Positions 4,086-6,032 of a DNA stretch of 8,667 nt are shown here, piece by piece. The stretch lies in the IMG/VR virus record IMGVR_UViG_2579778894_000017, one strand, 5' to 3'. The position numbers and the translations under genes are program-made. Under the pieces are notes generated by a model. It had not been told where the DNA came from. It saw only the letters and a list, made by a program, of their open reading frames with translations, and ran no database searches. Numbering within the stretch: the first letter of the stretch is position 1; the number at the start of each line of letters is the position of its first letter. The stretch comes from a virus (Duplodnaviria; Heunggongvirae; Uroviricota; Caudoviricetes).

Positions 4086-4378
4086 TAGCCTACTTGTTGG
4101 TTTTGTGTGAAAAGCAGACATTTTGAGACTCAGGATTTGTTATCAAATAAGACCAATACTTATCTATATTAATACACATTAAATACTGTGCAATACATTA
4201 TTGCATTTTATTAGATAAGCGATATTTAGGGAAAAGAAAAGTCATAGAAAACAGGCCGCTATTTGTTGTTGGATTTTATAGGCTATATCTAGATTATCTT
4301 GCCACTGCGGTCTCTGTTTACCTAACAGCTTGGGCTTCTTTGCATGCAAGTTTGTAATAACAAGAGTAATCAAACGGA

Positions 4379-5410
4379 ATGTCTATTAATCCTAAACTTA
4401 AGCGTATCGCGCGACGCTATCCAGCGTTATTCCAATATGAGTCCCCCTATATGGCAAGAAAATTAATAATATTCGGCAACGGTCTCGGTATGGCTTTAGA
4501 TCCTGCTCACTTCTCCTTAGACAGAGCGTTGGAAGAAATTTGGCATCGCCCCAATTTTTTAAAAGATATCCACAAGCAACTTATCGAGCGTTGTCTTCAG
4601 CGGCAAGGTCCACCAGAAGGAGAACATGAGTTGGATACCCTTCACCAGGCTGTCACATATTGTAAAGCTCTTGCTCAAATTGGAGAGGGGAACGTGCATT
4701 GGCTTACTGAAGATGGACTAAACTTCCCCAAAATTACCGCCACTTATATTCACAAAGTTGCAACCAGGTTGCATAATTACGATAAAGGTTTGCCACAAAG
4801 ATTCGAAAATGCGCTTGTGGAGTTTGTAAAGAACACACACTCACATATCGCGACATTAAACTATGACAAATTATTATACAATTCATTCATAGATAATGAT
4901 ATATTCAACGGGTATGATGGGGTTTTAGTTGATGGGATGCTAAGCCACGGATTTTCCTCTGCAGCGCTCGAACGGAAATACAATCGTAGGTTTGGTTATT
5001 ATTTGCACTTGCATGGTTCACCACTATTTATTAATCAGCATGAAAATGTTTTAAAACTTTCACGCTCACAACTTACTCTTGACATAGATGAACCTAGTGA
5101 GCATATAGTGTTAACTCATATAAAAAGAAAACCGTCAGTTATAGCAGCATCTAATGTTCTTTCTACGTACTGGGATTATTTGCAGTTTGCATTATTTGAA
5201 TCAGAAGAAATAATATTGTTTGGTTACTCTGGTCTCGATATTCACCTTAACCTGCTTATTCGACCTTACCTAACCTCTAAGCCTTTAAGAGTAATTGAGT
5301 GGAGCGGTGCTGGTGAACAAAACGCTCGTGAGATATATTGGAAAAACCAGTTGAGACGGGAAGTTACTGTAATTAGGTTGGATAACATCACTGATTTTAT
5401 TGATTGGTAG
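4379..5410 (+). CDS. SIR2-like (DHS-like NAD-binding fold) protein; candidate NAD+-degrading anti-phage defence effector
   Basis: 343-aa ORF in a visibly AT-rich segment. Ordered motifs typical of defence-type SIR2 domains: glycine-rich IIFGNGLG (aa 30-37), TLNYD (aa 159-163), HLHGS (aa 210-214) and FGYSGLD (aa 281-287). Start codon uncertain (4379 has a weak RBS; alternative ATG at 4451). Confidence 0.7.
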   Translation: MSINPKLKRIARRYPALFQYESPYMARKLIIFGNGLGMALDPAHFSLDRALEEIWHRPNFLKDIHKQLIERCLQRQGPPEGEHELDTLHQAVTYCKALAQIGEGNVHWLTEDGLNFPKITATYIHKVATRLHNYDKGLPQRFENALVEFVKNTHSHIATLNYDKLLYNSFIDNDIFNGYDGVLVDGMLSHGFSSAALERKYNRRFGYYLHLHGSPLFINQHENVLKLSRSQLTLDIDEPSEHIVLTHIKRKPSVIAASNVLSTYWDYLQFALFESEEIILFGYSGLDIHLNLLIRPYLTSKPLRVIEWSGAGEQNAREIYWKNQLRREVTVIRLDNITDFIDW

Positions 5411-5480
5411 CGCAATGCGAAGTTAAAGAGGCAGCCTCATATTTATCAGAGCTGGTGTACGTCCAATACAGGAGGTTATC

Positions 5481-5570
5481 GTGCTGGTTCTCAAATGCGC
5501 GCTGGCTATTGCGGCTGTAGTGGCAATTTATTGTCTTGCTATTGTTCTTATGGATCGCCTTTCTGATTGA
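5481..5570 (+). CDS. Putative 29-aa hydrophobic single-TM peptide
   Basis: AGGAGG at 5471-5476, 4 nt before GTG at 5481; translation MLVLKCALAIAAVVAIYCLAIVLMDRLSD, stop TGA at 5568-5570. Too short for the ORF track. One predicted TM helix with a charged C-terminal tail. Confidence 0.4.
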   Translation: MLVLKCALAIAAVVAIYCLAIVLMDRLSD

Positions 5571-5595
5571 TTTTATATTGGCGAGGTGACGGGAG

Positions 5596-5660
5596 TTAAG
5601 TAGAATTGCTGCGGGTGCTTGAGGCTGTCTGCCTCGGGCATGCCACCGTAAGGCAGACAG
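5596..5660 (+). promoter_or_regulatory. hok mRNA 5' leader: upstream complementary box and leader hairpin
   Basis: 5' GCGGGTGCTTGAGG (5611-5624) is complementary to CCTCAACGCACCCGC (5987-6001) near the mRNA 3' end, and GTTAAGT (5596-5601) to CACTTAAC (6001-6008). Hairpin CTGTCTGCC (5625-5633) / GGCAGACAG (5652-5660). Confidence 0.6.
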
Positions 5661-5689
5661 AGAAAAGCCCCAGTTAACATTACGCGTCC

Positions 5690-5760
5690 TGCAAGACGCT
5701 TAACATTAATCTGAGGCCCAATCTATGCTTCACAAACGTAGGTTAGCCTCTTACGCGCCG
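5690..5760 (-). ncRNA. Possible Sok-type antisense RNA overlapping the mok start (boundaries not determined)
   Basis: By analogy with hok/sok loci, the antitoxin RNA is encoded antisense to the mok translation-initiation region. A short GCGTC/GACGC inverted repeat and a duplicated TTAACATTA lie here. No promoter or terminator was pinned down. Confidence 0.25.
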
Positions 5761-5937
5761 AAAGGCAAGGAGAAGCAGGCTATGAAGCAGCAAAAGGCGA
5801 TGTTAATCGCCCTGATCGTCATCTGTTTAACCGTCATAGTGACGGCACTGGTAACGAGGAAAGACCTCTGCGAGGTACGAATCCGAACCGGCCAGACGGA
5901 GGTCGCTGTCTTCACAGCTTACGAACCTGAGGAGTAA
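5725..5937 (+). CDS. Mok-like reading frame (in-frame N-terminal extension of hok)
   Basis: 70-aa ORF sharing frame and stop with hok, the arrangement I recall for chromosomal mok/hok pairs. Its start sits where the antisense RNA would pair. Confidence 0.45.
   Translation: MLHKRRLASYAPKGKEKQAMKQQKAMLIALIVICLTVIVTALVTRKDLCEVRIRTGQTEVAVFTAYEPEE
5782..5937 (+). CDS. hokD: Hok/Gef-family type I toxin (51 aa), closest to HokD/RelF
   Basis: MKQQKAMLIALIVICLTVIVTALVTRKDLCEVRIRTGQTEVAVFTAYEPEE has the Hok-family signature (single TM, conserved RKDLCEV, TGQTEVAVF). AAGGAGAAG RBS upstream of the ATG at 5782. Confidence 0.9.
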   Translation: MKQQKAMLIALIVICLTVIVTALVTRKDLCEVRIRTGQTEVAVFTAYEPEE

Positions 5938-6005
5938 GAGACCAGGCGGGGGAGAAATCCCTCGCCACCGCTGATGTGTCAGGCATCCTCAACGCACCCG
6001 CACTT

Positions 6006-6032
6006 AACCCGCTTCGGCGGGTTTTTGTTTTT
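6006..6032 (+). terminator. Intrinsic terminator of the hok transcript
   Basis: AACCCGC-ttcg-GCGGGTT stem-loop followed by TTTTGTTTTT. Confidence 0.75.

Follow-up and report, generated by a model that had tools for sequence, protein, structure and literature searches.

Does the hok gene in the 8,667-nucleotide Caudoviricetes stretch IMGVR_UViG_2579778894_000017 of IMG/VR (here called the window) belong to a complete type I toxin-antitoxin cassette, or is it a decaying copy that has kept the toxin and lost its control? The locus sits in the early-right region of a Qin/mEp460-like lambdoid prophage of Escherichia coli, and a first-pass annotation made from the sequence alone had read positions 5596-6032 as a complete-looking hok/mok locus whose transcript ends are complementary. 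On the strength of sequence homology, structure modelling, and analogy with plasmid R1, we consider it very probable that the hok/mok/sok cassette at 5578-6032 is canonical and apparently complete and belongs to the hokD/hokW lineage, with a mechanism attributed by homology to R1 and supported by folding and covariation. The earlier bounds need one adjustment, as the true start is the -35 box at 5578. The cassette is already annotated and catalogued as a hokD/hokW-type hok/mok/sok and is not a new locus.

The toxin gene (5782-5937, plus strand) is preceded by the Shine-Dalgarno (SD) sequence AAGGAGA and is intact, as previously noted. Its 51-amino-acid product, MKQQKAMLIALIVICLTVIVTALVTRKDLCEVRIRTGQTEVAVFTAYEPEE, is identical to RefSeq HokD and matches Pfam PF01848 (HOK_GEF; E 1.2e-23, 82.9 bits against a cut-off of 22) and PHROG 251, 'MokW-like host killing' (E 3e-33); together with the Rfam match described below, these assignments bear out the hok/mok type I identity. 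The protein has the characters that define Hok/Gef, namely a membrane toxin of ~50 amino acids with an N-terminal transmembrane helix and an R-K-x-L-C-E core, and residues L29, C30, and E31 are kept in an alignment of 30 diverse homologues. This diverse set was taken from protein representatives; among the matches listed in the homologous-protein search, all were at least 94% identical. Against the NCBIfam Hok subfamily model, the protein scores 48.5, below the cut-off of 73. The codon for Tyr47 is UAC followed by G, which forms a UACG motif at 5920-5923. In K-12 hokD mRNA, A-to-I editing (6%) at the Tyr codon reportedly produces the conserved C-terminal Cys (PMC12214031), and since the motif here is identical to that of K-12 hokD, full Hok toxicity may depend on editing by TadA.

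Control of such a toxin would lie in the folding of its mRNA, in which the two ends are predicted to pair. The translational activator (tac) element, GGGUGCUUGAGG, is placed at the mRNA 5' end (5613-5624, plus strand) by Rfam, predicted folds, and covariation, and the fold-back inhibitory (fbi) element, CCUCAACGCACCC(GC) (5987-6001, plus strand), is placed as its pairing partner by folds, conservation, and covariation. The core complementarity joins GCGGGUGCUUGAGG (5611-5624) to CCUCAA-C-GCACCCGC (5987-6001) through 14 bp with one bulged C. This duplex has an energy of -27.3 kcal/mol, which was equalled in 7 of 5000 shuffles of the 3' untranslated region (UTR), and it is present in the minimum free energy (MFE) fold of the 418-nt transcript (-173.7 kcal/mol, z -6.5).

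Using a five-sequence Hok alignment, we gathered 73 loci encoding Hok relatives from one-genome-per-species contigs of about 10 genera (Escherichia species, Shigella, Kluyvera, Pseudocitrobacter, Citrobacter, Photorhabdus, Pantoea, Mixta, and others). In 47 of the 73, both the 5' and the 3' element could be recognised, and these loci gave 27 distinct tac/fbi combinations, which were compared both by per-sequence duplex folding and by a MAFFT alignment of mini-sequences made of tac, a linker, and fbi. Every one of the 27 combinations forms a tac/fbi duplex of 11-16 bp, and cognate pairs average -22.5 kcal/mol against -20.5 for non-cognate pairs; the cognate mean was reached in 0 of 2000 permutations. 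Within the alignment, 81.5% of cells are standard pairs, compared to 33-57% when the 3' side is slid by 1-3 columns; the count understates the pairing in Photorhabdus because the MAFFT alignment is ungapped and sets its bulge-less inner helix one column off. Both sides have changed in 7 of the 14 pairs. The clearest covariation is at U5616-A5996, where 17 sequences have U-A and 8 have C-G, and GAGG/CCUC has the compensated variants GAGA/UCUC and GAAG/CUUC, while in the Mixta locus the entire inner helix is swapped (UCUGGAUC/GAUCCAUGA). The same pairing logic is seen in the R1-type plasmid locus and in plasmid loci of Vibrio and Aeromonas. Because the outermost pairs (5611-12 with 6000-01) are not conserved, we take 5613-5624 with 5987-5999 as the conserved core. 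This compensatory conservation across genera, together with conserved promoters and a conserved Sok region (below), indicates selection on the RNA.

The complementarity claimed by the first-pass annotation therefore stands for this core, and it falls for the outer arm that had been joined to it, GTTAAGT (5596-5602) with ACTTAAC (6002-6008). A consensus scan places the hok/mok promoter at 5578-5606 on the plus strand, with a -35 box TTGGCG (5578-5583), a 17-nt spacer, and a -10 box TAGAAT (5601-5606). In each of the 47 related loci with a locatable 5' element, GGG[U/C]GC is preceded at a distance of 6-7 nt by a -10-like hexamer, K-12 hokC has TATAAT at the position aligned to the -10 box, and position 1 of Rfam model RF01794 aligns at 5613. 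From these four lines, the mRNA most likely begins at about 5611-5613, which would make GTTAAGT spacer DNA of the promoter and not RNA: it lies between -35 and -10, overlaps TAGAAT, and is very likely not transcribed. Its supposed partner overlaps the terminator stem, and the MFE fold does not contain the pair, even for an RNA that begins at 5596. Close relatives vary the 5' arm (GGTAAGA, TTTTTGT, CATAAGT) while the 3' arm is unchanged, so there is no compensation, and a 7-nt match of this kind arises in ~4% of shuffles. We rejected the outer arm as part of the fold-back; it is probably a chance match.

Between the promoter and hok lies the mok reading frame (5725-5937, plus strand, 70 codons in the open reading frame [ORF] list), whose ATG at 5725 is exactly 19 codons upstream of hok and in the same frame. 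It ends at the hok stop codon, and this arrangement, with a common stop codon and a 19-codon difference, is that of the curated mokC/hokC of K-12; the in-frame extension reported earlier is thus real. Its Shine-Dalgarno sequence, GAGG (5713-5716, plus strand), lies 8 nt before the ATG and is sequestered by the ucb box in the full-length fold. The exact 70-amino-acid product is on record in 177 contigs, and 28 of the 47 related loci have a 19-codon in-frame extension. An in-frame ATG extension is absent from 15 of the 47 hokC/D-type loci. Given these 15 loci and the out-of-frame mok of the R1 type, mok is not a fixed feature of the family in its frame. With frame and SD in place, translation of hok may be coupled to that of mok, by analogy.

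The remaining elements are those expected of a conformational switch. In full-length hok mRNA, a tac/fbi lock is accompanied by masking of the mok SD by ucb; after 3' trimming, tac/ucb and SD/dcb stems allow translation and Sok binding; and during transcription, a metastable hairpin holds tac (PMC9841398). Predicted folds of this locus give tac the corresponding three partners: fbi when the RNA is full-length, ucb once it is truncated, and 5629-5641 while it is nascent. The ucb, or anti-SD, box (AAGCCCCAG; 5665-5673, plus strand) was located from MFE folds: in the full-length fold, 5667-5673 is paired with 5711-5717, SD included, and when the RNA is cut after the hairpin at 5945-5966, the MFE changes to GGG.GCUU (5613-5620) paired with AAGCCCC (5665-5671). 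The predicted metastable 5' hairpin (5613-5645, plus strand) pairs tac with the adjacent downstream sequence over 13 bp, and the fold of these first 33 nt has -21.2 kcal/mol (z -4.3). The core of the downstream complementary box (dcb), GCCUC (5746-5750, plus strand), complements the mok SD region GAGGC (5713-5717) in the Rfam structure. The structure prediction suggested by the first-pass annotation, once run, thus recovers both tac/fbi and ucb/SD in the full-length transcript, and a predicted change to tac/ucb upon 3' truncation, preceded by a nascent metastable hairpin, agrees with the fold-back inhibition that it had proposed.

At the 3' end, predicted folds contain a stable UTR hairpin, GGCGGGGGA-GAAA-UCCCUCGCC (5945-5966, plus strand), which by analogy with R1 hok (PMC9841398) is presumed to be the 3' end protector of the processed, active mRNA. 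Transcription would end at an intrinsic terminator, AACCCGC-TTCG-GCGGGTT with a T-run (6006-6032, stem-loop 6006-6023, plus strand), found by terminator scan and fold in accordance with the earlier reading. The Rfam RF01794 'sok' match spans 5613-5787 on the plus strand and the whole model (1-157 of 157; 116.2 bits against a gathering threshold of 59, E 1.3e-26). This model, named 'sok antitoxin', describes the sense hok leader with its tac/ucb and SD/dcb stems and ends in the hok AUG. A plus-strand match to it is therefore misleading for placing the Sok gene.

The antisense RNA was instead located by transferring the coordinates of K-12 sokC through alignment, which predicts a Sok of ~77 nt running from 5733 to 5657 on the minus strand; the window of 5690-5760 proposed earlier for a Sok-like RNA has to be shifted to this interval. 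Its 5' end overlaps the mok start codon, and it is predicted to fold into a long, stable hairpin followed by a U-rich tail, GGGGCUUUUCUCU (-33.2 kcal/mol, z -6.0). Compared with SokC, it gains ~18 nt from a longer target hairpin. The putative Sok promoter (5740-5766, minus strand) has a -35 box TTGCCT (5766-5761), a 17-nt spacer, and a -10 box TAACCT (5745-5740), and ~45 loci of Escherichia, Kluyvera, Photorhabdus, Pantoea, and others have the pattern TTG(C/A)C(T/C)-N17-TA(A/C)(C/T)CT at the corresponding place. By this comparison, the Sok gene and promoter appear homologous to the annotated sokC and conserved across genera, and Sok may be expressed.

What we infer are the transcription starts, the processing of the RNA, the expression of Sok, toxicity, and a biological role in prophage maintenance, abortive infection, or both. 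The cassette would work much as R1 does. The promoter at 5578-5606 would yield an mRNA of ~420 nt, in which the 5' tac would be held by the metastable hairpin during synthesis. In the finished RNA, tac (5613-5624) would pair with fbi (5987-5999) and ucb would mask the mok ribosome-binding site, leaving the RNA stable and inert. Slow 3' trimming to the hairpin at 5945-5966 would strip fbi, whereupon tac would pair with ucb, the mok start region would open, and translation of mok would permit translation of hok. As long as the locus is present and transcribed, the unstable, short Sok (5733 to 5657, minus strand) would bind the processed mRNA and destroy it; once the supply of Sok ends, the 51-amino-acid membrane toxin Hok would be made and the cell killed.

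The surroundings of the cassette bear on what such a mechanism might be for. DicF small RNA is encoded at 301-352 on the minus strand (Rfam RF00039, 72.5 bits, full length), and this, with dicB, ydfA-C, and rem in an identical genome record, marks the prophage as Qin-like. The ORFs of the window include, in order, those for a cI-like repressor, Cro, a YdaT-like protein, a replication protein, a DUF977 protein, a SIR2_2-domain protein (4379-5410), Hok, Rem, a DUF968 protein, and RusA. The segment 5560-6060 is 100% identical to three complete E. coli chromosomes, where RefSeq labels the product 'type I toxin-antitoxin system toxin HokD', and, of 5426 complete E. coli genomes, 3849 have a place that covers at least 80% of this 501-bp query. 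At the same map position, the cassette is carried by phages of known sequence (mEp460, HannyBb, Evi, Tritos, and PPompW/Stx2 phages), under the labels MokW, HokD, or 'gef phage maintenance protein'. Contigs labelled as a Veillonella parvula metagenome-assembled genome, Acinetobacter idrijaensis, and Xanthomonas pisi also carry hokD copies whose protein is 96-100% identical, two of these contigs being shorter than 500 bp; the copies are most likely E. coli contamination of the assemblies. The cassette and its terminator are co-oriented with the replication genes upstream and with rem, DUF968, rusA, and Q downstream. Early-right transcription would need to read through the hok terminator, and 5'-extended hok RNAs might then appear during induction.

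Immediately upstream of hok, the prophage is variable. The plus-strand ORF at 4379-5410 encodes 343 amino acids from its first ATG, and the RefSeq product in the identical genome record (7892-8851) has 319. It matches the PADLOC models Aga_SIR2, PDC-S21, and SIR2 weakly (E ~1e-5 to 1e-6) and matched no NCBIfam or PHROG family, and for these reasons it is not assignable to a named defence system. Only 46 genomes cover at least 80% of a query of 4200-5600, which contains SIR2 and the hok upstream flank, compared to at least 1379 genomes in which the last 173 bp of the query (5428-5600) are found; the constant hok module therefore starts near 5428, with SIR2 as cargo. The variable slot extends from about 4100 to 5428, between the DUF977 gene and hok, and the hok-rem-DUF968-rusA side is constant. 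At least seven other cargos occupy the slot in other prophages and phages. These include an AAA_13 ATPase in E. coli A2 (PADLOC PDC-S06, E 0), a 449-amino-acid protein in phage mEp460 (PADLOC PD-T7-1, E 4e-157, a validated defence gene; PMC9519451), and relBE in K-12, along with cargos that have no PADLOC match: QueH in HannyBb, a polyketide cyclase with LysR in A36, and unknown genes in FCI54 and ECC-1470.

Several observations weigh against the reading of 5578-6032 as a complete, R1-like cassette. The covariation was measured among related sequences, in segments anchored on the GGGYGC and GCRCCC motifs, which favours structure. The truncated fold leaves the mok SD in a weak local hairpin, so that activation is not obvious from the MFE, and the inner SD/dcb stem of the Rfam model is non-canonical in this locus. 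The Sok -10 box fits the sigma-70 consensus at 3 of 6 positions, which is why a generic sigma-70 scan missed the promoter and it was located by homology, yet within the family TAACCT is itself the consensus. For chromosomal and prophage hok loci, a post-segregational killing phenotype has repeatedly not been demonstrated, and hok genes reportedly show no enrichment near defence systems (bioRxiv 10.1101/2025.08.07.668861). The locus could be a silent or decaying chromosomal copy like the hok genes of K-12, one that has kept a complete appearance after losing expression or toxicity: of the five hok loci of K-12, four have been described as inactivated and hokD is without canonical components (PMC12214031), both the Sok and hok promoters here fit their consensus only moderately, and the Tyr codon, reportedly edited just 6% in K-12 hokD mRNA (PMC12214031), stands in the same UACG at 5920-5923. 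We regard this as improbable. The elements lost from K-12 hokD are all present here and the ORFs are intact, which at the level of sequence upholds the earlier statement that the locus is 'not a decayed relic'; tac/fbi is conserved across genera, as are the promoters and the Sok region, with compensatory changes; sequenced and presumably viable phages carry the cassette; and diverse Hok homologues were toxic whatever their location (2026 preprint).

If the cassette is functional, its main role could be abortive-infection defence of the lysogen against other phages and not prophage stabilisation, which we consider possible but rather unlikely. R1 hok/sok excludes T4, according to papers citing Pecota and Wood (1996), hok genes are ~4-fold enriched in prophages (bioRxiv 10.1101/2025.08.07.668861), and the adjoining cargo slot holds defence genes in relatives (PD-T7-1, E 4e-157, PMC9519451; PDC-S06, E 0); however, half of the slot cargo examples are without a defence signature, and hok lies near known defence systems in 12% of cases against 9.4% expected, which is not an enrichment (bioRxiv 10.1101/2025.08.07.668861). 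A stronger version of the defence proposal, going beyond the small defence and stabilisation cluster suggested by the first-pass annotation, would have SIR2 (4379-5410) and hok/sok act together as a single dedicated system for defence and stabilisation, in two parts that are co-inherited. The two are adjacent and co-oriented, the SIR2_2 domain and its weak PADLOC SIR2 matches would suit such a role, and the exclusion of T4 by R1 hok/sok, as recounted in those citing papers, has been reported. But SIR2 is found in 46 genomes against at least 1379 with the hok upstream flank (5428-5600) and 3849 with the hok locus, the same slot elsewhere holds PDC-S06, PD-T7-1, relBE, QueH, polyketide cyclase with LysR, or unknown genes, and hok has a promoter and terminator of its own. 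A dedicated unit is accordingly very improbable, and we rejected it for want of consistent co-occurrence across genomes: hok and SIR2 are independent modules in a common cargo hotspot.

More speculatively, and with less confidence than we give to a defensive role, hok/sok and the segment 5428-5600 may form a fixed right border of a cargo-exchange hotspot of Qin/mEp460-like lambdoid phages, in which defence genes such as PD-T7-1, PDC-S06, SIR2, and relBE are swapped in and out; the cassette could then retain the adjoining cargo or act with it. A literature search found no specific description of a hok-adjacent lambdoid defence hotspot. The 173-bp segment, which travels with hok and not with SIR2, contains an unannotated 29-codon ORF with a GTG start (5481-5570, plus strand) and an SD AGGAGG (5470-5475), encoding the hydrophobic peptide VLVLKCALAIAAVVAIYCLAIVLMDRLSD, which under the same tentative proposal could be a second, undescribed membrane peptide of the module. 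This ORF is intact in seven variants, with 9 variable columns in 90 nt compared to 16 in 83 nt in the flanks, a substitution pattern too sparse to decide coding status; it has no Pfam, PADLOC, or PHROG match, and some E. albertii records call it 'hypothetical protein'. The cassette in any case marks the constant edge of a variable slot with validated or candidate anti-phage genes in relatives, an edge that could help in searching lambdoid prophages for new defence genes, the SIR2 protein found here among them.

As a discovery, the locus is of small value, the gene being RefSeq hokD and a member of a large phage protein family, and a 2026 census lists tens of thousands of hok loci and notes their prophage enrichment. 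Its worth is as a clean reference for the hokD lineage, with every regulatory RNA element in place; the K-12 laboratory copy, a relE-hok fusion, is without them. Because all of these elements are kept, the locus is suited to tests of whether hok/sok stabilises prophages or aborts infection.

Among known systems, K-12 hokD (relF, Qin prophage) is one of the closest to the cassette. The Hok protein is identical to that of K-12 and of other RefSeq hokD, the two DNAs are essentially identical over a stretch that begins ~15 nt before the hok ATG and takes in fbi and the terminator, and the downstream rem and Qin-like context (dicF, dicB, ydfA-C, DUF968, rusA) are the same. In K-12, however, relE/relB replaces the upstream region, leaving hokD without promoter, tac, ucb, mok, and sok, all of which are kept here; our alignment agrees with the published account that K-12 hokD lost its canonical components through rearrangement (PMC12214031). 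As judged from sequence, this locus is the complete form of the K-12 hokD lineage. The relE-hok junction without tac, mok, and sok is also present in E. coli/Shigella, in Enterobacteriaceae bacterium G50, and in a Kluyvera sp., and in the other genera it adjoins a Hok 70-80% identical to HokD, with an fbi-like 3' sequence kept. Its presence in several genera makes relBE-hok ('relBEF') look like a maintained alternative and not an accident of K-12.

The other hok systems share the layout to varying degrees. K-12 hokC/mokC/sokC (gef) has a leader that is homologous from the -10 box onwards, with tac, ucb, and the mok SD, as far as hok; its mok begins 19 codons before hok in the same frame, its Sok is at the aligned position, and its Hok is ~82% identical. 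It differs in being chromosomal and not prophage-borne and in its Sok-target hairpin, which is 18 nt longer in the present locus, and its 3' region, including fbi, no longer aligns because IS186 is inserted downstream in K-12. The archetypal hok/mok/sok of plasmid R1 has the same order of elements, the same tac (GGCGCUUGAGG)/fbi (CUGAAGCGCC) pairing, a ucb AGCCCC, a mok SD GAGG, a Sok promoter overlapping dcb, and a 3' hairpin, although its Hok is just ~43% identical to that encoded here. The 70-codon mok of the R1-type locus is out of frame with its hok by +1, unlike mok here and K-12 mokC, which share the frame of hok. R1 is plasmid-borne with demonstrated post-segregational killing, whereas the present cassette is prophage-borne and its role is putative. 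The phage counterparts are hokW/mokW of Stx-converting and other lambdoid phages, which belong to the same protein family (PHROG 251, E 3e-33). In mEp460, HannyBb, Tritos, and PPompW/Stx2, their DNA is 89-94% identical to that of the window, and they occupy the same position between the replication genes and rem/DUF968/rusA/Q, so that they differ from the cassette described here only in allelic changes and in the cargo of the upstream slot.

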